Assembly (NCBI GenBank): GCA_951406725.2
Contig: OX597819.1
Span: forward strand, 48,608,001 to 48,672,000
Length of the DNA stretch: 64,000 nt
Direction: 5' to 3'
DNA from: Octopus vulgaris
Lineage: Eukaryota
The notes under the pieces are model-generated. The model had not been told where the DNA came from and ran no database searches. It saw only the letters and a list, made by a program, of their open reading frames with translations. The position numbers were made by a program, and so were the translations under genes. Of this stretch, positions 5,012 through 63,677 are shown one piece after another; position 1 is the first letter of the stretch, and each line of letters opens with the position of its first letter.

Positions 5012-5015
5012 GTAT

Positions 5016-5318
5016 CCCGTGTCGGTGGCACGTAAAAGCACCATCCGTTCGTGTCCGTTGCCAGCATCGCCTGGCCCCGTGCCGGTGACACGTAAAAGCA
5101 CCATCCGTTCATGGCCGTTTGCCAGCTCTGTCTGGCACCTGTGCAGGTGGCACGTAAAAACACCCACTACACTCGCGGAGTGGTTGGCGTTAGGAAGGGC
5201 ATCCAGCCGTAGAAACACTGCCAGATCTGACTGGGCCTGACGAAGCCTTCCAGCTTCACAGACCCCAGTTGACCTGTCCAACCCATGCTAGCATGGAAAG
5301 CGGACGCTAAATGATGAT
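5016..5318 (+). mobile_element. RTE 3' tail copy
   Basis: Three ggcacgtaaaagcacc units, conserved tail, (gat)n. Confidence 0.85.
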
Positions 5319-5322
5319 ATAT

Positions 5323-5833
5323 ATCATCATCATCATCATCACCACTATCATCGTTTAACATCTGTTTTCCATGCTGGCATGGGTTGGACAGTTTGACTAA
5401 GGTCTGGAAAGCCAGTGGCTGCACCAGGCTCCAATCTGATCTGGCAATGTTTCTATAGCTGGATACCCTTCCTAACTTCAACCATTCCGAGAGTGTAGTG
5501 AGTGCTTTTTACAGGCATCTGGCAGAGGAACCAGTCAGGCAGCCCTGGCATTGATCATGTTTGGATAGTGCTTTTTACATGCCGCTGTCACAGGAGCCAG
5601 TCGGTGGTTACTGGCATTGGCCATGTTTGGATGGTGCTTTTTATGTGCCACCAGCACAGGAGCCAGTCAGGTGGCCCTGGCATCAATCACATTTGGGTAG
5701 TGCTTTTTACATGTCACCGGCATGGGAACCAGCCAGGAGGCACTTGCATCGACCTTATTCAGATGGTGCTTTTTATGTGCCACTGGCATGGGAGCCAGTC
5801 AGGCGGCACTGACATTGACCATGTTTGGATGGT
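5323..5833 (-). mobile_element. RTE 3' tail copy, older, about 5 units
   Basis: (cat)n then reverse tail with repeated ggatggtgctttttatgtgcc units. Confidence 0.85.
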
Positions 5834-18251: not shown

Positions 18252-19146
18252 TGAGGTCTGATCAATAAGTATCCAGACTGTTGCTATAGTAACGAAGCTA
18301 AAGCATGCAGAGTAAAGCTGCTTGGCACAGATTGACCTTGAACTCTGCTGTGCATGCACACTAAGTTTTAACATTTTAGCTCACTTCCCCTGTTTACAGA
18401 AGTGCTTGGAAGTAACATGTATAATGTGTGATCGTTGCATTGACCATGACAGAAAAATTTGTCATGGCAATACCTGCTCAGAGGCCTATGCAAAGTTGCA
18501 GAAGGTTTATGAAGAGGAGTGTATGAGTCACACACAAGTGTATGAGTGGTTCAGACGTTTCTAAGATGGCCAAAAAAATGTTGATAGTGAGGAACATTCT
18601 AGGAGACCTGCAATCAGCAGAACTGAGAAAAACTTCGCAGATGTGTGTGTAGCTGTGAGGAGAAATCATTGAATCACCATTTGTGAGTTATCAGAGGATG
18701 TGCAGATTAGGTATGGTTCGGTTAAGTCCATTATTACTGAAGATTTGGGTATGAGATGTGTGTCTGCCAAATTTGTGCCAAAACTGCTTTCATCTGACCA
18801 AAAAGACACTCAGGTTTCAGTTGCACAAGATCTACTTGATCGTGTAGTAAACAATGAAAACTTTTAAAAAAGTTTGCATTGGCCTCTGAGCAGGTATTGC
18901 CAAGCATTTGTCAAAATTTGAGGCAGATTCTCTGCTCAACTTTCTTTGTCATGGTCAATGCGATGCTCTCACATTATGCATGTTAATTCCAAGCACTGCT
19001 GTAAACTGCAGAAGTGAGCTAGAACATTAAAACTTAGTGCACATGCACAGCAAAATTCTAGGTCAGTCTGTGCTAAGCGGCTTTACTTTGTGTGTTTTAG
19101 CTTTGTTCTTATGACAACAGTTCGGATACTTATTGATCAGACTATG
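18252..19146 (+). mobile_element. Mariner derivative with two inverted 5' ends
   Basis: About 250 bp inverted arms including the transposase start; internal MSHTQVYEWFRRF and AKFVPKLL; TA flanks. Confidence 0.85.
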
Positions 19147-20859: not shown

Positions 20860-21630
20860 ACAGGTGTAACAGCACTTTAAACATGCCTTACTAGACACTA
20901 CTTGTCACAACTGACTAATTTACAGAATGAAATGGGGACATTTGGAAGCTTGCTAGACAGTAAAGTTTTGTGTTAAATTGGTGGGCAAAAATGCTACAGA
21001 AATTTATGAACCGCTCAAGATGGCATATAGACAAACTTTTTTGTTGGCTGAAGAGTTTTAAGGATGGTAGAAAGGTGGTGAATGATAAGAGGTGTTGGAG
21101 GGGGAAAGAGCTGACTGAACATCAGAGCTGGTTGAGAAAATTCATAATTTTCTGAATGAAGACTGTTGTGTGTCTAAAAAGACACCATACAGTCTGGAGT
21201 TGGTGTGGTAACTGTACACAGGATTATTCATGAAGATCTGAACATGTGCAAAATTTGTGTTAACTTTGTTTTCAGGGTGCTCAGTGATGACCATCCTGAT
21301 AACCAGCTACTTGATAGAGCTGGGTATCAGAACTGTCCTCCACCCTTTCTATAGTAAAAAAAACCTTGCTCCCTGTGACATTTGACTGTTCCCAAAGTTG
21401 AAGCAGAACCTCAGGAGCAATCATTTTGAGAACAAAGGAGGCTGTGACAAGGATCTTGGACACCTTCATTTTGGATGACTTCCATGAGGCCTTTATGAAG
21501 TGGCTGGAGCCCTATAATATGTGCATTGAAGTCAGAAGATCCTGCTTTGAAGGAGAATAGAGCTTTGTACTTCTTTGAAATTAATAAATGTCTGGCCCGT
21601 AAGTCTGTAAACATTTGGAATGTACCTTTG
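20860..21630 (+). mobile_element. Decayed mariner
   Basis: VKFCVKL..KNATEIYE, IIHEDLNMCKIC, LAPCD..LFPKL motifs; terminus before TA at 21631. Confidence 0.75.
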
Positions 21631-21682: not shown

Positions 21683-21738
<56 letters not shown>

Positions 21739-21742
21739 ATAT

Positions 21743-22046
21743 ATAAGTAATAAGGATGTACAGGTGTTAATACATTACAGCCATTTCAAGTGGCTCAATT
21801 TAATTGACAAATGAAAACATGACATCAGTTCAAAATAAACCGCTCTCTTCAGATGCTGATGACCATATAGATTTGAAACACAAAGGATAAACCATTTTTC
21901 AACCATGTTGTTTGAAATCTATATGGTCATCTGCTACTGAAGAGAGCGGTTTATTTCAAATTGGTGTAATGTTTTCATTGATCAACTAAAAGGGGCCACT
22001 TGAAATGGCTGTAATGTATTGACACATGTACATCCTTGTTACTTAT
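21743..22046. mobile_element. Foldback element with a hammerhead motif in each arm (inverted pseudo-LTR-like)
   Basis: About 135 bp imperfect inverted arms; CTGAAGA...GAAATGGCTGTA on - (21772-21856) and + (21933-22017). Confidence 0.7.
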
Positions 22047-22159
22047 TCACATTCCGTTCACCTTACTTGGGGCTGTGTGGACTATACTGAACTGGCAAGG
22101 TGCCTCAATTTAAGTACCTAATTTAATTGAATCTCAATTATATATATATATATATATAA

Positions 22160-22495
22160 TTTCAACAATTGAGGGTAAAATTAATTAATTAATCAATTTC
22201 ACCAAGTATTCAGTATACAAAGGGACCATTTAAGGCGAATTCAAATTATTACATTATATAAAAGGGCTTAGTAAAATAAATTACTTTGCCGCATACTGAA
22301 CTCATTAGAAATAGCAGCTAAAAAAAAAACTTTTTTAAAAACTATTTCCAATACTTAAAGAAAACCTCTCTCATATGAGAGAGGTTTTCTTTAAGTATTG
22401 GAAATAGTTTTTAAAAAGTTTTTTTTTTAGCTGCTATTTCTAATGAGTTCAGTATGCGGCAAAGTAATTTATTTTACTAAGCCCCTTTATATAAT
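22160..22495. repeat. Dispersed repeat ending in a 243 bp near-perfect palindrome (22253-22495)
   Basis: Arms mirror around ctcatatgag; linear relatives at 17700-17850, 29140-29440, 37878-38065. Confidence 0.85.
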
Positions 22496-23189
22496 ATATA
22501 TATATATATATAATACAAATAAGAAACTGGAGGAACAGATTCATTTCAATCATTGACTTACAGATATTACCAATTCATATTATTTATTAACTACATAAAT
22601 AGTGGAATACACTCATAACCCCTATCTCACTTTGTACTATATATATATATATACTGTATTGCTCGCACCCAATACATATAATATAGAAATGAAGGTTCTT
22701 AGTTCAAATCCAATTTAGTGTAATATACACATATTGATGGACAAACACCTGAGGATTGGAGATTAAACTGATTGAAGCATGAAGTACATGTACATAATCC
22801 TTCGTTTCTAAAGATGATAAAACAAATATTATCATTGTATTGAACTGTTTCAGATAACTGTTTATTGTTTTTTTTTTGTGCATCATAATTTATGTTGTGG
22901 TGAAATCTCATAATTATACATCCCATTGTATACCTTTCTTTGTGTAGAAATATGGATAGTTTGTTCAAAAAATTAATACAGTGCACACCACACTTGCACA
23001 CATACACATACATGCACACACACACATACATGCACATACACACTCATGCATGTGTACACATGCACATACATCCAATGGATTCTTTGAATTACCATCAACC
23101 TAATTCACTCATAAGGATTTGGTCAGCCTAGGGCTATAGTAGAAGACACTTGCTCAAAGCTCCACACAGTAGGACTGAACCTATCATCA

Positions 23190-32480: not shown

Positions 32481-33108
32481 ATGCAAGATAGTCTGCACTT
32501 AATACCTATGCAAGATAGTCTGCATCTTTTTATTAGTACCCTCTGTCCTTCCTCTTCCCTCACTCTGCATGATTAGCTGCATTTTGTCCATCTTTACATT
32601 CTGATGTCAACTTTGCCTTTCATCTTTTTGCAGTCAATGAAATAAGTACCAGTGAAGCACTGGAGTTGATGTAATCAACTTATCCCTTCCCACCAAAATT
32701 TCATACCTTGTGCCTATAGTACTAAGGATCATTATCATCATCATCATCATTGTAACAATTCTTGTTATGTTTTATTTTATTTTTATTTATTTTTATTTAT
32801 TTTATCTAGTTTCAGCTCACGAGCTGTGGCCATGCTGGGGTACCGCCATGTGTATATATAATATATATAATATACTTGATAACATTATTATGGGGTTGAT
32901 ATGTGTAAGTGTATATATGCATGTGTATGTGTGTATATTTATGGTTTATATATATGTATATATGTGTTATATGTGTGTATGTATGTATGTATGTATGTAT
33001 GTATGTATGTATGTATGTATGTTTGTGTGTGTGTATATATATATATATATATACATATACACAGTAGAATAATAAAGAGAAAATTCTTAGTACAGCATTA
33101 TATATACT

Positions 33109-33382
33109 TGAAAGAATGAATAGAGATGGCTTTTTTGAGGAGATAATTTTTATTTTAATCTTAATAATAATGTTTACAGTGAGTTTGATATGATTTTCAA
33201 GCTTCTCATAGCCGTTTTCAAATTGAAAACATACATTTTTCAATTTGAAAATGGCCACGAGAAGCTTGAAACTCATATCAGAGTAACTCACTGTAAACAT
33301 TATTAAGATGAAAATAAACATTATTATTAAGATTAAAATAAAAATTATCTCCTCAAAAAAGCCATCTCTATGCATTCTTTCA
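33109..33382. repeat. Foldback, about 120 bp arms
   Basis: tgaaagaatgaatagagatggc... mirrored by ...gccatctctatgcattctttca. Confidence 0.9.
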
Positions 33383-33389
33383 TATATAC

Positions 33390-38113: not shown

Positions 38114-38325
38114 AACAATTGCAGCATGGAAGGTGTTTATAAGCCATTTAAGAAACACACAAAAGCTGTTCGATTCACTTCAACATTTAAGTTTAATTTG
38201 TCAAAATATTTTCGTCGCTAAAATCCGCGACCTGTTCACTGACAAAGTCCGTGCTGCATCGTGAATCGAACGGCTTTTGTGTGTTTCTTAAATGGCTTAT
38301 AAACACCTTCCACGCTGCAATTGTT
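38114..38325. repeat. Foldback with 65 bp arms and a structured loop
   Basis: aacaattgcagcatggaagg..gattcac / gtgaatc..gctgcaattgtt; between (TA)n tracts. Confidence 0.9.
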
Positions 38326-38379
38326 TTCGTTTCAGCACACGATCTCAGATCAAATTACTTGCTATGCGAGTACATCTCC

Positions 38380-38428
<49 letters not shown>

Positions 38429-40070: not shown

Positions 40071-40701
40071 ATAACAATAAATACACAAAGAGGAAGGGAG
40101 AAAAGATATTTACATTCTCCTTACAGGAATAAGGTGAAATATCTATTTAATGTCAAAGTTCTTTAGACACCATTGATGGAGACTTTAAAATGTGTCTACA
40201 TATTATTATTATTATCATCATCATCATCATCTATCATTATTATCATTATTATCATTATTATTGTAGTAGATTTTTACCTGAAGCCTGGTGTTGAAAAGCC
40301 TTCAAGCCATACGAGTTATAGTAATTTAGAATATGATAATTTGTGGAAGAAAAAGATCATATTAGATTTGGAGTTGATTGATTTATATTATATATGAAAG
40401 AATGTGTGGATTGAATATTTTTATCCTTAACTCTTTCATTATCATATATCTGTGGAAATACCTGTCTTTTATGAGTTTCAGTCATTAGACTGCGGCCATG
40501 ATGGAGCATCACTTTGAAAACTTTTAGTTGAATGAATCGACCCCCCCACCCCCAGTCTTTATTTTCTGTTTAAGCCTGGTACTTATTCTGTTAGTTGCTT
40601 TTTGCTAAGTTATAGGGATGTAAACAAACCAACACTGGTTGTTGAGCAGTGGTGGGGGACAAACACAGACACAAAGACACACATTCATATATATATATAT
40701 A

Positions 40702-41178
40702 TCATCATCATCATCATCATCATTTAACATCCGTTTTCCATGCTAGCATGTGTTGGACGGTTCGACCAGGGTCTGGAAGCCATGCAGGCTGCACCAGGCT
40801 CTAGTCTGTTTTGGCAGTGTTTCTATAGCTGGATGCCCTTCCTAACGCCAACCACTCTGGTTCAGAGCAGGTTGGCAAACGGCCACAATCAGTTGGTGCT
40901 TTTACGTGTCACCGACACGGATGCCAGTCAGGCGGCGCTGGCATCTGCCATGTTCGGACAGTACTTTTTACGTGTCACTGGCACGGGTGTCTTAACTACA
41001 AATTATATATATATTAAAACACCCAGTACACTCGCGGAGTGGTGGCGTTAGGAAGGGCATCCAGCTGTAGAAACACTGCCAGACTAGACTGGAGCCTGGG
41101 CGTCGAGCTCCCCAGACCCGGTCGAAACCGTCCAATAGCGCGGAAAACGGACGTTAACGATGATGATGATGATGATGA

Positions 41179-41182
<4 letters not shown>
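40702..41182. mobile_element. Two divergently oriented RTE tails
   Basis: (cat)n reverse tail 40702-41000, short TA run, forward tail 41015-41182. Confidence 0.8.
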
Positions 41183-41251
<69 letters not shown>

Positions 41252-41286
41252 TAGGTCTCTTTCTTTCTTTTGTTATCTTACCGTTT

Positions 41287-41341
<55 letters not shown>

Positions 41342-41349
41342 TTACATAT

Positions 41350-41687
41350 ATAAAATAGAGGAACATCGCAAAGCTGTGACACGAGGAGATATTGATAAAT
41401 TGGGTATAGCTGATAATGTATGGAAAAATGGAGACTACCTCCCCCTGTGGGATGAAGTTAAAATAATAGACAGAGAACACCACTGGAAAATATGAAACCT
41501 AAAAGAAGCAGCACATATGCTAGGACACAGTAACCTCCTAAGCAGACCAAATGCATATGGGAACTGGTATTAAGGAAGTATAGAAAAATATTAGATTTAT
41601 AAGCCCTAAAAATTCACCCCATAATTACCCACGGGCATATGGCGTAGTTCGATTCCAGTTCCAAGTTCGATTCCAGGCTGTGACTTG

Positions 41688-41730
<43 letters not shown>

Positions 41731-41845
41731 TTGAAAAATAACTTGGGAATGAGAACCCAGGTTTTAAATTTCCCCAAGACACCTGATGAAGGCTGGAGGG
41801 TATATCAGCCAGATGAGGACAAATATCCGTCAAATGTAAATAATG
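41350..41845 (+). mobile_element. Penelope-like 3' end: GIY-YIG C-terminus plus partial hammerhead
   Basis: [43 protein letters not shown]; CTGATGA-a-ggctg/cagcc at 41783-41810. Confidence 0.8.
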
Positions 41846-43514
41846 TAAAATAGCACTCTGTTGGTTATGACAACGAGGGTTCCAGTTCATCTTGTGAAAT
41901 GAATGTGCAAGTGGCTTGATCACTCCACAGACATACATACCCTTAACGTAGTTCTTAGGAAAATTCAGCATTACACAAAATGTGACAAGGCTAACCATTA
42001 AGCCATGCCCTAACACACACACATACACACACACAATGAGCTTTCTCACAGTTCCTGCTTACTAAATTCACTCACTAGGCATTTGTTGATCTGAGGGCTA
42101 TGCAGTAGGACTGAACCTGAAGCCACATGGTTGCAAAGCAAGCTTCTTAACCACATAGTCACACTTGCATCTAACATGAAATTTTGATGGAAGGGTTTTT
42201 TTTTTGTTTAGATCACTTTAAAATAGGAAGCTTGTATCATAACATCAGGCTGGTATTAAAAGAGTTACTTACTGGGGAGGTAAAAAAAAGAGAAAATGAT
42301 GGTATTACACTGTGAACCTTCATCATCATCATCGTTTAACGTCTGCTTCCCATGCTAGCATGGTTGGACGATTTGACTGAGGACAGGCGAACAAGATGGC
42401 TGCATCAGGCACCAATCTTGATCTGGCAGAGTTTCTACTGCTAGATGCCCTTCCTAACGCCATCCACTCTGAGAGTGTAGTGGGTGCTTTTATGTGCCAC
42501 CGGCACAAGGGCCAGTCAGGCTGTACTGGCAACAGCCATGCTCAAATGGTGTTTTTTTTACGGCAATGGAGAGAGTGAGCTAATGAACAGCTCATACATT
42601 TGATCACTAGAAGCAAGTCATCTGTGCAGATTATTCAGCAAGAAATAGCAGAACTGCCGTTCTTGGACTATGAGAGACTACAATCCCATTTGTTGGCGTA
42701 GACAAAGTGAACTGAACCTTTTTACTGGTTTTTGTCATTGGACTATAACCATGCTAATGGTTCTGCCAGCTCACCACTTTGAACATGAGAAATATTGGTT
42801 TCATATTTTGGCACAAGGCCAGCAATTTCAGTGGAGTGGGTAAGTTGATTAAATCAACTTCAGTGATCAACTCATACTTATTATATTGACCCCGAAAGGG
42901 ATAAAAGGAAAAGCCTGTCTTGACTCTATTTCAACTCAGAACATAACAAGAGACAAAATGTCCCTAGTCATTTAGCAGGTGTATTAAAGATTTTGTCAGC
43001 TTGCTGTCTTGAACAACAGAAGCATTAAAATGAGAGAAACATGAAAATGAGAGAAACCTTGAAATGTCTGGCATCAAATAAGTCAGCATAAGCAACACTG
43101 AAATGGCTAAGCCAAAACATCTCATACCATTATTTTGTTACAGTGTTGTGTAGTCTAACTATTGTTAGGGTTATTGGATCATACTAATCATTTTATAGGT
43201 GCAGGCTGTGTTATAAGAAGCTTGCTTCCAGTTATATGGCTTTGTGTTCAGTACCCACTGTGTGGGCACCTTGGGCAGGTGTCTTCTATTATAGCTCCTG
43301 GCTGACCAAAGGCCTTATGAGAGGATTGGTAGACAGAAATTGAAAGAAACCCAACACACACACACACACACAGAGGTTATGATAGGTAATGGTGTCATTG
43401 AGACCCGAAGGTGTCAGGTAATGCTGAATAAGTGGTATAGATAGACTGCAGTTAAGTTCCAGGTTCGGTGATTATGCGAATAATTGGTTCAATGTTGGTC
43501 ATATATCAGCGTGT

Positions 43515-45717: not shown

Positions 45718-46934
45718 ATATATATACTCTCTTTACTCTTTTACTGGTTTTAGTCATTTGACTGTGGCCATGCTGGAGCAGCGCCTTTAGTCGAGCAAAT
45801 CGATCCCCAGAACTTGTTGTTTGTAAGCCTAGTACTTATTCTATTGGTCTCTTTTGCTGAACCACTAAGTTACAGGGATGTAAACACACCAGCATCGGTT
45901 TTCAAGCGATGTTGGGGTGACAAACACAGACACACAAACATATACACATACATATATATACATAATCTTTGTGTCCGTGTTTGTGCCCCCACCACTGCAT
46001 GACAACCAGTGTTGGTGTGTTTGTGTCTCCCTAACTTTGCAGTTCTGAAAAAAGAGACCCAATCAAATAAGTACGAGGCTTTAAAAACAAAATGTACACG
46101 GGTTGATTCATTTACTCTTTTACTATTTTACTTGTTTTAGTTATTTGACTTCGGCCATGCTGGAGCACCACCTTTTAGTCAAGCAAATCGACCCTAGGAT
46201 TTAATCTTTGTAAGCCTAGTACTTATTCTATCAGTCTCTTTTGCCGAACCACTAAGTTACGGTGATGTAAACACTCCAGCATCGGTTGTTAAGCGATGTT
46301 GGGAGTGGGGGGACAAACACAGACACACAAACACACACATACATATATATATATACATATGCATATGCGACGGGCTTCTTTCAGTTTCTGTCTACCAAAT
46401 CCACTCACAAGGCTTTGGTCGGTCCGAGGCTATAGTAGCAGACTCTTTGCTCAAGGTGCCATGCAGTAGGACTGAACCTGGAGCCATGTGGTTGATAAGC
46501 AAGCTACATACCACACAGCCACTCCTAAAATTCTTTTAGGTGGTGCACCAGTCTAATGACTGAAACAATTAAAAGATTAAAAGATAAAAGATTTCCTATA
46601 TTATTCTACTACTTTGTTTGTCCAGCATTATATCAAATACAAATATTTGTCAATTTTCTGCTGTGTTATTTCCATATTTGTGTTCTACATGTTATTTTGG
46701 AATGTGTGTTTTGTTGCTGCATGGATCCTCAGAAGGGAGAAATAATAACTTTTAATCTGTAGAGTTTGCTGAGGTGTATTTGCATTTCTAGTCGGTTGAA
46801 TATATAGTTGCCATGGGTGTGTGGATTGGATCAGATAGTAGCCATTCACCATGTTAACTTGTACTGCGTGCCTTATTTGAAGGAAGAATTTGTTTGCTAG
46901 ATTAATAATGGCTTCGGTGAAGAATTATTATTCA

Positions 46935-47400
46935 GGTGCAGGAGTAGCTGTGTGGTAAGTAGCTTGCTCATCAACCACATGGTTCCGGGTTCAGTCCCAC
47001 TGTGTGGCACCTTAGGCAAGTGTCTTCTACTATAGCCTCAGGCTGACCAAAGTCATGTGATTGGATTTGGTAGACGGAAACTGAAAGAAGCCCGTCATAT
47101 ATATGTATGATTTTGATTTTGATTTTTCCAGTTTCAGCTCATGAGCTGTGGCCATGCTGGGGCACCGCCATTGTATATGTATGTATATATATATATATGT
47201 CTGTGTGTCTGTGTTTGTCCCCCCAACATCGCTTGACAACTGATGCTGGTGTGTTTATGTCCCCGTAACTTAGCGGTTCGGCAAAAGAGACCGATAGAAT
47301 AAGTACTAGGCTTACAAAGAATAAGTCTTGGGGTCGGTTTGCTCGACTAAAGGTGGTGCTCCAGCATGGCCGCAGTCAAATGACTGAAATAAATAAAAGA
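46935..47400 (+). mobile_element. SINE family B, full length, with a nested tail fragment at about 47108-47172
   Basis: A box tagctgtgtggtaag, B box gggttcagtccc, ccttaggcaagtg, tail ccagcatggccgcagtc. Confidence 0.85.
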
Positions 47401-47721
47401 GTAAGTTATCTTATTAACTTCATCCACAGGTATAATACATATCTGTTTGTCTGTATGTTAATTTTTTTTTGGTGTGTGTATGGGGGGAGGGGTAATCTGT
47501 TTGCTTTTCTATCTTCATGTGTTCATGTCTCTCTCTCTCCCTCTCTTCCTTAAACACACGCACACACACTCATACATATACACAATCACACACAAACACA
47601 AACATTTATCTATCTATCTATCTATCTATACATGTATGTATATGAAAGAGGGCAAGAGAGAGAGATAAATGGATAGAGATACATTGGACATAGTGAAAAA
47701 CATGGATGGACCATTATGTAT

Positions 47722-50110: not shown

Positions 50111-50355
50111 GGTGTGGATATATTTTGTTTAATGTACACAATATATAGTTATGGGCTACTAACAGTTTCATACACTGGTGATGTTGTCTATACAGGTTTT
50201 AATAACATGCCTAGAAAACACCTCTAAAGTATTCTGAAGCTATTAGTAGTTCATAAGTATATATTGTGTACATTAAGCAAAATTTATCTCTCACTAGATG
50301 GAGTACTTTTTTTGTCGATTTTACCTTAATGGAAAGGTAAGTTATATGTATATGC

Positions 50356-53215: not shown

Positions 53216-53265
<50 letters not shown>

Positions 53266-53273
<8 letters not shown>

Positions 53274-53452
53274 ATATTTCGGAATGGTCATTTTGCCAGT
53301 TTAGCCAATAAAAATACACACACTATATATTTGGTGTTATTTTGCTTCAGTGTTATTTACTTTTTACATTAATCTTAATAACACCAAATATATAGTGCGT
53401 GTGTTTTTATTGGCTAAACTGGCAAAATGACCATTCTGAAATATAACAATAT
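53266..53452. repeat. Foldback with about 75 bp arms between (TA)n tracts
   Basis: ttgttatatttcggaatggtc..ggtgttatt / aataacacc..gaccattctgaaatataacaa. Confidence 0.9.
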
Positions 53453-53488
53453 CTGTTTCAACACATGACTTCACATAAAAAATCTTGC

Positions 53489-53535
<47 letters not shown>

Positions 53536-56546: not shown

Positions 56547-56596
56547 GATATATATATATATATATATATATGGTATAGTATATATGTGTATATATA

Positions 56597-56639
<43 letters not shown>

Positions 56640-56807
56640 ATAATATCAGGGTAATAAAGATTTTAGAAATTTTTACTACCAGTGGCCTAGCGTATAGAAA
56701 AATTAGTCAATAGACTATATATTATTCATACAATATACAGTGTACATTTAAATACATTAAGAGGTATCCATCTTAATGTGATACCTCTTACTGTGTTTAA
56801 ATGTATA

Positions 56808-56928
<121 letters not shown>

Positions 56929-57131
56929 TATATTTAAGTAGTTGAATGAATTATCCTAGTATGGATAATTCGGTTAACCAATACCCGGGTAGCAAATTCA
57001 CGTCAGAAAACATGGTTGAAACTACATGCCAAGGGCAGAGACCACGTGCTTTCATGTGGAAATTTGTGTTTTTTTTACTATAAATAAATGAGAGAATGGA
57101 GTTGAACGATGATTTAACAAAATTCCTTTAT

Positions 57132-57212: not shown

Positions 57213-57634
57213 GACAAGGAACTTATGTCAGCATCATGACAAACAAAAACTTTTAGATGACTGCCCACACGGAGTCCATAGTGATAATGAGTGTTTCTTT
57301 AAAAAATATATATATATGAGATCTTGGTGAAACCTCATATATTTTATCCATATGTTGGTGTTCGGAAGGGCACCCAGCTGTAAAAACCGCAGAAATCCGG
57401 TGTAAGCTCCTGCCTGGCAGGCTCCTACACCAACCTGTGCTAGCATAGAAGACAGACATTAAACAATGATGATAATATATTATTCTTTTACAAGAATGTT
57501 GCTGACAGTGACTTCAAAGTTTTGGCTTTGTAAACCATTGTTAGACTGTGTAACCTTTGAAGTCACTGTCAACAATATTCTTGCATCAGAATAATAAATT
57601 TGTACCCTGCAAAAGTATAGAGCAACCCATGAGA

Positions 57635-58739: not shown

Positions 58740-58934
58740 TATATACGATGGGCTTCTTTCAGTTTCTGTCTACCAAATCCACTTAAGGCTTTGGTTGGCC
58801 CGAGGCTATAGTAGAAAACAGTTGCACAAGGTGCCACACAGTAGGACTGTACTCGGAACCATGTGGTTCGTTAGCAAGCTACTTACTACACAGCCACTCC
58901 TACACCTGTTGAATCAAGTAAAACCAATATCATA

Positions 58935-59948
58935 GCTATGGCCAGTGCCCCCTGACTGGCTCCTGTATCAGTGGCACATGAAAAACGCCAACAGATCGTG
59001 GCCGATGCCAGTAACCCCTGAATGGCTCTTGTGCCGGTAGCACATAAAAAGCACCATCCAAATGTGATCGATGCCGGGCCCAGCTGACTGGCTCCCATGT
59101 ATGTATGTATCATCATCATCATCATCCTTTAACATCTGATTTCCATGCTGGTATGGGTTGGACTGTTTGACTGAAGTTTGGAGAGCCAGCGGCTGCACCA
59201 GGCTCCAATCTGATCTGGCAATGTTTCTACAGCTGGATGCCCTTCCTAACAGCAATAACTCCGAGAGTGTTGTGGGTGCTTTTTATGTGCCACCAGCATG
59301 GGAGCCAGTAAGGTGGGCCTGGCATTAATCACATTTGGATGGTGCTTTTTATGTGTCACCAGCACAAGAGCCAGTCATGGGGTATTGGCATCGGCCACAA
59401 TCGATTGCTACTTTTTATGTGCCACTGGCACGGGAGCCAGTTAAGGAGTACTCTCCACAGCTATAATATTGGTTTTACTTGACTCAACAGGTCTTCTGAA
59501 GCATATCATGTCACCCAACACATCAGGTGCATTCTTAACAGGTCCAGACGTGCATGACTGTGATCTCACTTTAGTTGCCAGGTCTTCTCAATCACAGTAT
59601 ATCTCCAAAGGTCCTGGTCTCCCGTCATTGCCTCTGTGAGGCCCAATCTTTGGAGGTCATGCTTCACCACCTCATCTTATGTCTTCCTGGATCTACTTCT
59701 TCCACAGGTTCCTTCTACAGTTAGAGAGTGGCACTTCCTCACCCAGCTGTCTTCATTCATACATAAAACATGACCATACCAGCACAGACACCTCTCTTGC
59801 ACACCACATTTGATGCTTCTTATGCCCAACTTTTCTCTCTGGGCACTTACACTCTGTCACATATGCACACTGCCATTACACATCCAGTGAATCATACTAG
59901 CTTCATTTCTTTCAAGCCTGCGCATGTCCTTGGCCCATATTTCACTGC
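58935..59948. mobile_element. Forward RTE UTR fragment (58935-59100) plus reverse RTE 3' fragment (59110-59948)
   Basis: Unit motifs; minus strand RNEASM and VVKHDL homologous to 51695-52100. Confidence 0.8.
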
Positions 59949-60354: not shown

Positions 60355-60464
60355 TCTCTGAAGAGGCCGTGGCGCATCCTTGTTAATACCTCATTTATAC
60401 CTGCCTTTATGGCTTATAGGTTAAATGAGGTATGACTGCCCTTGCTGCCGAAACAGCTGTCAGA
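60355..60464 (+). ncRNA. Type I hammerhead ribozyme, intact core, 85 nt stem II
   Basis: tct-CTGAAGA-ggc...gcc-GAAAC-AGCT-GTC-aga; internal perfect 12 bp helix 60386-60397/60422-60433. Confidence 0.82.
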
Positions 60465-62328: not shown

Positions 62329-62634
62329 ATCATCATCATCATCATTCATTTAGCGTCCGTTTTCCATGCTAGCATGGGTTGGAGCACTGGGGTCTGTGAA
62401 GCCAGAAGGCTTCATCAGGCCCAGTCAAATCTGGCAGTGTTTCTACGGCTGGATGCCCTTCCTAACGCCAACCACTCCGTGAGTGTAGTGGGTGCTTTAC
62501 GTGCCACCCGCACTGGTGCCAGACAGAGCTGGCAAACGGCCACGAACGGATGGTGCTTTTTATGCCACCGGCACGAAGGCCAGGCGATGGCAACGGACAC
62601 GAAACGGGGCGGTGCTGGCAACGGTCGCGAAACG

Positions 62635-62635
<1 letters not shown>
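62329..62635 (-). mobile_element. RTE 3' tail copy
   Basis: (cat)n, reverse tail, shortened units. Confidence 0.8.
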
Positions 62636-62668
<33 letters not shown>

Positions 62669-62701
62669 CTTCAAATAGACCTACACATGTTTCTGCATAC
62701 A

Positions 62702-62733
<32 letters not shown>

Positions 62734-62993
62734 GCATTTAAGAGAGAAGCATGCACACATAAACAGCTCAAAAGTAAATGGACACTTTCCAGTATACCAT
62801 TTTAAATGTGCAGACACTACTCATTAGTATGATGTCCAAATGAGTTAAACCAATAAAAACTGAACAAAGCATGTCTACTAAATACTAGATTAAATATTTA
62901 TATGTATCAAATGACATTTGTTTCTAGAAATAAATCTTTTAAAAAATGGTGGCGTCTACTTACTTTTCAGATGTCTGTGTGTGTGTGTATATA

Positions 62994-63029
<36 letters not shown>

Positions 63030-63057
63030 TGTATGTATGTATGTATGTATGTATCTA

Positions 63058-63142
<85 letters not shown>

Positions 63143-63150
63143 ATATATAT

Positions 63151-63677
63151 AACCTCATCCGACGACAGGCACGTATGCCTACCCCCCTTTGCTTGCGAAG
63201 ACCTGTTGGGGCAAGTGAAATCGGAATCGAAATTGAACCAATCCTATGACTGGCACCCGGCAGATGCCAGGACCCCTGGACTGGAGATACGTAAAAAGCA
63301 CTATCCGAATCGTGGCCGATGCCAGCGCCGCCTCGACTGGCTTCGTGTCGGTGGCACGTAAAAAGCACCATCCGAATTGTGGCCGAAGCCAGTGCCGCCT
63401 CGACTGGCTTCCGTGCAGGTGGCACGTAAAATGCACCAATCCGCCCGTGGCCGATGCCAGCCTCACCTGGCACCAGTGCAGGTGGCATGTAAAAAGCACC
63501 CACTACACTCATGGAGTGGTTGGCGTTAGGAAGGGCATCCAGCTGTAGAAACATTGCCAGATAAGACCGGAGCCTGGTGCAGCCTTCTGGCTTCCCAGAT
63601 CCCCGGTCAACCGTCCAACCCATGCTAGCATGGAGAACGGATGTTAAACAATGATGATGATGATGATGATGATGATA
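63151..63677 (+). mobile_element. RTE 3' UTR copy close to 51153-51620
   Basis: Matches the minus strand of the long RTE, with one extra unit. Confidence 0.9.

Follow-up and report, generated by a model that had tools for sequence, protein, structure and literature searches.

The foldback at positions 21743 to 22046 of the window (the whole 64-kb stretch of DNA analysed) raises the question of which kind of element left a hammerhead ribozyme motif in each of two inverted arms, and by which route. The imperfect palindrome described in the original prediction was confirmed. The arms (21743–21891 and 21898–22046, 149 nt each) are 85% complementary, and the RNA fold of 21700–22200 (-223 kcal/mol, z = -20) was equalled in stability by none of 100 shuffles. 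The apex is crossed by independent DNA contigs, one from X1 (organism A) and one from X5 (organism B), which span 21753–21971 with one and two differences, respectively, under two species labels; the foldback is therefore not an assembly artefact. The features of the locus are as follows.

21686–21742, no strand: (TG)n(TA)n left flank, from the sequence
21743–21899, minus strand: left arm, an element's 3' end with 5' truncation, whose short (S) end lies 33 nt past the hammerhead cut; inner boundary from comparison with other copies
21772–21856, minus strand: type I hammerhead of the left arm, stem I of 4 bp, core CTGAAGA at 21852–21846, GAAA at 21787–21784
21900–21907, no strand: filler at the head-to-head junction, repeating a 6-nt word of the left arm; boundary approximate, from the sequence against other copies
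21908–22046, plus strand: right arm, a second 5'-truncated 3' end, reaching the S point; from the inverted repeat and copy comparison
21932–22018, plus strand: type I hammerhead of the right arm, core 21937–21943, GAAA 22002–22005, cut after 22013
22047–22140, plus strand: one-sided tail of 94 bp, reaching the long (L) end at 127 nt past the cut site; from comparison of family ends
22141–22158, no strand: (TA)n target remnant, common to the foldback and the neighbouring insertion; from the sequence

The foldback consists of two decayed, 5'-truncated 3' ends of Penelope-like elements (PLEs), placed head to head in a TA repeat, the coding sequence being gone. An unpaired extension of about 90 bp followed by (TA)n had been noted from the letters alone and was found at 22047–22140 (94 bp); it corresponds to the PLE 'tail'. 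No target-site duplication was readable in the flanks of the foldback. The locus as a whole is very probably a decayed, 5'-truncated head-to-head insert of a Hydra-clade PLE with one short end and one end bearing the 94-bp tail, likely produced by two reverse transcriptions on one RNA. A further repeat, judged by contig depth, lies at 21437–21621; it may resemble the end of a mariner transposase.

On its minus strand, the left arm reads gcat-CTGAAGA-gagcgg..ccactt-GAAATGGCTGTA-atgt, letter for letter as predicted, with C3 at 21852 and a GUA cut site after 21776. Stem II has five of six pairs, loop II comprises 46 nt, and stem III has 2 bp with a self-complementary 8-nt word. The claim that the right arm repeats this motif on the plus strand holds for the core (C3 at 21937) and fails for stem I, where the two inner pairs are lost because tgcta stands in place of gcat; one stem II pair is gone as well. 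A hammerhead descriptor matched the left arm and did not detect the right one. It found three motifs in the 64-kb window compared to 0.1 per shuffled window (40 shuffles); descriptors with short spacers would overlook a long loop II. Among the best 150 of 249 Rfam matches over the window (E ≤ 5), no hammerhead family was present, and these listed matches were microsatellite and hairpin look-alikes only. A C.A mismatch in stem II is common to the two arms, as is the stem III word ATGGCTGT, where the family majority reads ACGGCCGT. In the window, ATGGCTGT and ccactt represent CpG-type changes, by which the predicted stem III duplex drops from -14.1 to -4.7 kcal/mol. The ribozymes of the foldback are probably inactive, as predicted from the damaged stems and from the long hairpin that an RNA running through both arms would form.

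The right arm and the 94-bp extension together are the 3' end of a dispersed repeat family, termed old family here. In a search of its own 2.8-Gb genome, arm plus extension gave 1910 first-look candidates, of which 40 were scored, and the arm alone 1324; neither figure is a copy number. Apart from the window copy, the scored copies are 80–88% identical to the right arm and extension. Old-family copies have variable 5' ends and two fixed 3' ends, at about +33–40 and +127 nt after the cut. The 114 distinct 3' ends in the loci fetched, a few of which come from related families, comprise 49 short (≤50 nt after the cut), 59 long (≥105 nt) and 6 intermediate ones; 55 of the long ends fall in the 120–129 nt bin, and a microsatellite lies within 30 nt of the end in 91 of the 114. 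With tail-free queries, the two classes are about equally frequent (21 short, 17 long and 3 between; 22 short, 23 long and 2 between). The majority sequence of the 88 copies spanning the ribozyme, a consensus whose inspection had been proposed at the outset, keeps by sequence the full core (each position in 74–85 of 88), pairs in stems I to III and has the stem III palindrome ACGGCCGT. In the parent element, this hammerhead is predicted to cut tandem transcripts, aided by dimerisation through stem III.

Walking upstream through the genome in three steps crossed about 1.8–2 kb that is T-rich and non-coding, then reached a disrupted frame, on the same strand as the hammerhead, which ends in a GIY-YIG-like domain. 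The RT and GIY-YIG pieces lie on the unit's strand, and a same-strand endonuclease remnant is located about 1.8–2 kb upstream of the unit in three loci (L052, L112, L114). The Pfam GIY-YIG match on an old-family piece was weak (E 0.022, under the cut-off). A search with an RT-thumb piece returned 6310 candidates, including young sister families with intact frames of 980 and 1090 aa; the best old-family pieces are 45–67% identical to the intact 980-aa frame. Two intact sister frames are:

L118:3026–5968: frame with two long Asn-rich inserts
L122:3169–6441: frame with two long Asn-rich inserts

RT and GIY-YIG are thus encoded in a single frame upstream of the repeat end, broken in the old family and intact in the sisters. 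Linear copies of arm plus extension, which the original prediction suggested looking for at the ends of PLE frames, do occur at the 3' end of RT/GIY-YIG frames. The variable 5' ends, the one-sided tail and the upstream RT/GIY-YIG frame bear out its reading of the foldback as a PLE insertion with an inverted partial pseudo-LTR. In the 3' UTR, a coding reading of the A-rich strand opposite the hammerhead was ruled out, since the endonuclease sits on the hammerhead strand and the sister UTR has no real frame on either strand.

The parent is most likely a PLE of the Hydra clade, to judge by linker and endonuclease motifs and by the sister families. The consulted part of Craig et al. 2021 (PMC8557442) describes this clade (e.g. 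Hydra-1_Obim, Penelope-13_HM) as PLEs with a C-terminal endonuclease, RWK and DKT motifs, a CxCX5C linker, CxxC/CxH around E and N, and a length generally under 3 kb. By alignment, the CxCX5C linker precedes the endonuclease in the old family (L076, L074, L077) and in the sisters; CCHH is absent, and CxxC and CxH flank the conserved E and N (L087 in the old family, and the sisters). RWK/RWR and DKT are present in the sisters L118 and L122, and the N-terminal RT part with these motifs was not recovered intact in the old-family copies fetched. A canonical hammerhead and a (TA)n target, both Hydra-clade traits, are found in the old family. The CX2-5CxxC linker and CCHH motif of Neptune/Nematis are absent from the aligned frames, and an assignment of the protein to Neptune was ruled out by the motifs. 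Naiad traits are not matched, as the endonuclease is C-terminal and a hammerhead is present. Pfam gave no match on the two intact sister frames (980 and 1090 aa), and tblastn of a sister frame against the 64-kb window gave none either. A homolog search returned 31 proteins of 541–788 aa, among them a single named record, from octopus, 68% identical over 21% of the query, which makes a cephalopod host likely. When the old endonuclease piece was compared with longer proteins, 61 candidates came up and none was scored.

As far as the consulted text of PMC8557442 extends, the likeness to the Hydra clade includes the order of RT, CxCX5C linker and GIY-YIG, the RWK, DKT and CxxC/CxH motifs, a type I hammerhead in sense orientation close to the 3' end, its stem III short and palindromic, the (TA)n target, and a note of an inverted 5'-truncated copy for Penelope-13_HM. 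In contrast to the length given there (<3 kb), the sister units measure about 4.7 kb (4713 bp in the sister family Y1), with Asn-rich inserts and a 3' UTR of 1.6–2 kb. Two long Asn-rich inserts, as in L118 and L122, are described for Adineta Penelope elements in the part of PMC3846280 consulted. Loop II has 43–46 nt here compared to 3–10 nt in the published table, as seen in part, and the hammerhead of the Octopus bimaculoides Hydra family (2507 bp, 8-nt loop II according to the supplement of PMC8557442, consulted in part) differs from that of the foldback.

The sisters have a 3' UTR of 1639 nt, a long-loop hammerhead that keeps the fold with different stem sequences, a short end at about +36 and a long end at about +155. 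Each of the two ends is preceded by a motif (immediately, in the case of the short end) that the old family has in common with three young ones. At tandem junctions of the sisters, the ATG is positioned about 55 nt beyond the long end and about 210 nt after the cut, and five read-through ends of sister families show the pLTR running into the ORF start (partial tandem). No such ORF-start junction was found among the old-family loci fetched (L116 inspected by eye). Poseidon PAc of Anolis carolinensis (Frangieh et al. 2024, PMC11167929) likewise has a tail delimited by two 3' ends beyond the hammerhead, and an AT-rich target; it differs in clade and in its ORF, which starts inside the hammerhead instead of about 210 nt after the cut as in the sister family. 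The Y1 3' UTR contains a long pyrimidine tract. Contigs over the Y1 hammerhead and tail were seen in presumed RNA runs; contigs cannot show ends, strand or level.

As an insertion, the foldback is an ordinary fossil, the head-to-head arrangement with a one-sided tail being already published for PLEs. Head-to-head arms, one-sided tail, microsatellite target and lack of a readable target-site duplication all agree with the pattern in the consulted parts of PMC8557442 and PMC3846280. The tails of 90–120 bp exceed the 30–40 bp stated there, and the pairing of ends was counted here and is near-strict. Compared to the published work consulted, these tail lengths, the 46-nt loop II, the near-strict pairing of short with long ends and the one-haplotype arms go further. 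Long Hydra tails were not found in any paper of the literature searched, which was mostly open-access. In the published Hydra table, as consulted in part, 10 of 24 consensus ends lie at +30–48, 9 at +114–153, 4 between and one at +355, if each tabulated position is read as marking where its window begins; these distances hint at a clade-wide long tail.

Old-family head-to-head pairs combine a long with a short end in 28 of 30 rows; the other two include an intermediate end, and neither long with long nor short with short was seen. A query that included the tail yielded 12 of the 30 rows, and three of the 30 represent a single locus (L152) with two adjacent inserts. Y1, found without the tail, shows the same combination in 13 of 15 two-ended inserts and no pair of like ends. 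One of its two deviant inserts has a +95 end and duplicates the junction of a different insert; the other has a +16 end. Four Y1 ends have no partner in view. Near certainty attaches to what was observed: how the foldback is built, which family it belongs to, that this family has two fixed 3' ends and an RT/GIY-YIG frame upstream, and that short ends pair with long ones. Among the 15 Y1 short ends listed with their motif, 10 carry a G ahead of (TA)n at the position that is T in the read-through template (e.g. L119:7259–7300); TA-like words occur in that template at both the short and the long site. Two near-full-length young elements stand head to head in L120/L121 (C2:37.62 Mb), with one short and one long outer end.

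The two arms of an insert resemble each other more than they resemble other copies. In Y1, 13 of 14 inserts show no difference between their arms at family-variable sites (1–11 sites each, four of the concordant pairs resting on one or two sites), and in L118 the arms disagree at 2 of 11. Arm-to-arm divergence is 15.5% in 19 old-family pairs versus 18.2% to other copies, and 13.3% versus 18.8% in the foldback itself. The subfamily base N7 is identical in 11 of 12 old pairs; the remaining pair is G/T, and A never occurs with G. Junctions were surveyed in ten loci, giving nine rows and eight independent cases. The arm reaching further 5' is the short one in three (by about 60–390 nt), the long one in three and neither in two, L166 and L179 having symmetric junctions. 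Overlaps of 5–7 nt were present in four of the eight, and gaps or fillers of 2–30 nt in the other four.

Near-universal pairing of a short with a long end would fit two copying events begun on one RNA. We slightly favour a course in which one cDNA is started from the short and one from the long site, both copy the hammerhead region, stop early and are joined by microhomology or filler. An RT-endonuclease would nick both strands of a (TA)n tract, and the two nicked 3' ends would each prime reverse transcription of one and the same RNA, from the short site in one case and from the long site in the other. The polymerase behind would displace the cDNA ahead of it; both cDNAs would halt early, and their ends would join by microhomology or filler. 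Such a twin start on one RNA accounts for the pairing, for the shared haplotypes and for either arm being the longer one. The hammerhead is present twice because it is located just upstream of both start sites; at the foldback, the ribozyme is a passenger. A caution on the mechanism is that deletions after insertion, in the middle of the palindrome, could produce junctions of the same kind.

The twin start is supported by in vitro work on a Poseidon protein, which extended both strands of the target, starting at two internal sites that correspond to the tail; speaking against it, no preference for either strand was seen at the two start sites (PMC11167929). As far as consulted, the literature (PMC11167929; PMC3846280) regards as open how PLEs come by their one-sided tails and head-to-head arrangement. 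No paper on PLE integration by twin priming was found by title and abstract, the level at which the literature was searched for it. The near-strict pairing, the shared haplotypes, the end motifs conserved in four families and the intact young frames make the twin-priming model directly testable. In L1 twin priming, two nicks prime two cDNAs, microhomology joins them and an inversion results. The L1 pieces do not overlap, whereas here both cDNAs would copy one stretch from two fixed sites.

A bolder version is offered tentatively. According to it, every two-ended insert would stem from one dimeric RT-endonuclease on one RNA, each subunit with its own start motif (about 35 and about 125–155 nt after the cut) and priming opposite target strands. 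The tail would be the distance separating two starts that must both occur, and occur together; Hydra-clade tails would have three times the reported length, and non-coding hammerhead repeats would integrate likewise, without needing a rolling circle. Obligate twin priming with a long clade-wide tail was not found in the mostly open-access literature searched.

The strongest competitor of the twin start, which we nevertheless consider rather unlikely, is a snap-back, proposed for Adineta Penelope palindromes in the consulted part of PMC3846280. The first strand would prime itself, possibly on antisense RNA, and the hairpin would then be resolved in such a way that one arm lacks the tail. This route explains the shared haplotypes and the symmetric junctions of L166 and L179 as well. 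It predicts, however, that the long-end arm reaches at least as far 5' as the short one; the three contrary junctions need later deletions, and an extra step is required to stop at one fixed short site.

It is highly improbable that the unit is a non-LTR retrozyme, i.e. a tandem hammerhead repeat making circular RNA. The type I hammerhead with a palindromic stem III is that of animal retrozymes, for which dimer-assisted cleavage of short-stem-III hammerheads was shown in axolotl (PMC7229834, consulted in part) and is likely here by way of stem III, and the neighbouring element is such a tandem unit. The consulted part of a preprint (bioRxiv 10.64898/2026.07.22.740005) argues that retrozymes derive from PLEs; the word 'tail' does not occur in that part. 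Unlike the animal retrozymes in the consulted parts of these two sources, the old family belongs to a coding element, its copies being nested 5' truncations of it, and no head-to-tail array of the unit was present among the fetched loci. Five direct-repeat rows trace to two matches that had been split, one of them encountered twice, and to a single pair of adjacent inserts.

Equally improbable is a functional, retained two-ribozyme hairpin or small-RNA source, for which the stability of the fold, its presence under a second species label and the closeness of its arms (13.3% versus 18.8%) could be adduced. The stems are damaged in both arms, however, and one RNA carries only one ribozyme, since the two hammerheads sit on opposite strands. 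Over the 88 copies, the core (92%) is hardly better conserved than loop II (90.5%) or the flanks (87–89%). With this uniform decay, and core and stems both intact in only 14 of 88 copies, there is no sign of selection after insertion. The least probable reading, a MITE or DNA foldback transposon with a chance hammerhead-like motif, would suit long inverted arms in a TA context (the family of 38114 in the window does have fixed ends) and is refuted by asymmetry in most copies, variable 5' ends and junctions, a tail on one end only, longer copies running into the RT/GIY-YIG frame, and an intact majority core in place of the identical ends, target-site duplications and lost core named in the original prediction for an ordinary MITE.

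The suggested connection between the foldbacks and the ribozymes of the window was upheld in part. It applies to 22155–22498, a 5'-truncated head-to-head insert of a young, very abundant 560-bp tandem retrozyme-like unit (summed contig depth about 1e6 versus about 40 for single-copy pieces). This unit carries a hammerhead (GUU site), which is cut off in the window copy. The long end lies on the minus and the short end on the plus strand, about 95 bp apart, and all seven two-ended loci of this insert family, judged by eye, combine a long with a short end, which suggests PLE-type integration of a retrozyme-like repeat. The connection does not extend to the two other hammerheads, which lie outside foldbacks and belong to families other than that of the foldback at 21743:

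60358–60461, plus strand: type I hammerhead from another family; its core halves are separated by 85 nt that fold into a long stem II, it has a GUC site, and (TA)n follows after about 190 nt
57208–57136, minus strand: type I hammerhead from a third family; 54 nt separate its core halves, and it has a GUC site

Nor does it extend to two further foldback families, in each of which no hammerhead was found by descriptor in 15 loci. The foldback at 38114–38382 has a tail of about 55 bp in (TA)n, the same ends in 15 of the 15 best loci and a variable middle; it looks as if copied as a ready-made unit. A head-to-head insert of a young family is located at 53216–53500, with two ends about 50 bp apart (a tail of about 50 bp) and variable junctions; it is Naiad-like by form only. 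The common cause is likely PLE-type integration, not the ribozyme. Further foldbacks lie at 33101–33388, 50117–50288, 56579–56932, 57474–57600 and 5015–5661, and longer inverted pairs near 18256–19142, 40687–42493, 45733–47404, 58904–59492 and 62329–63667.
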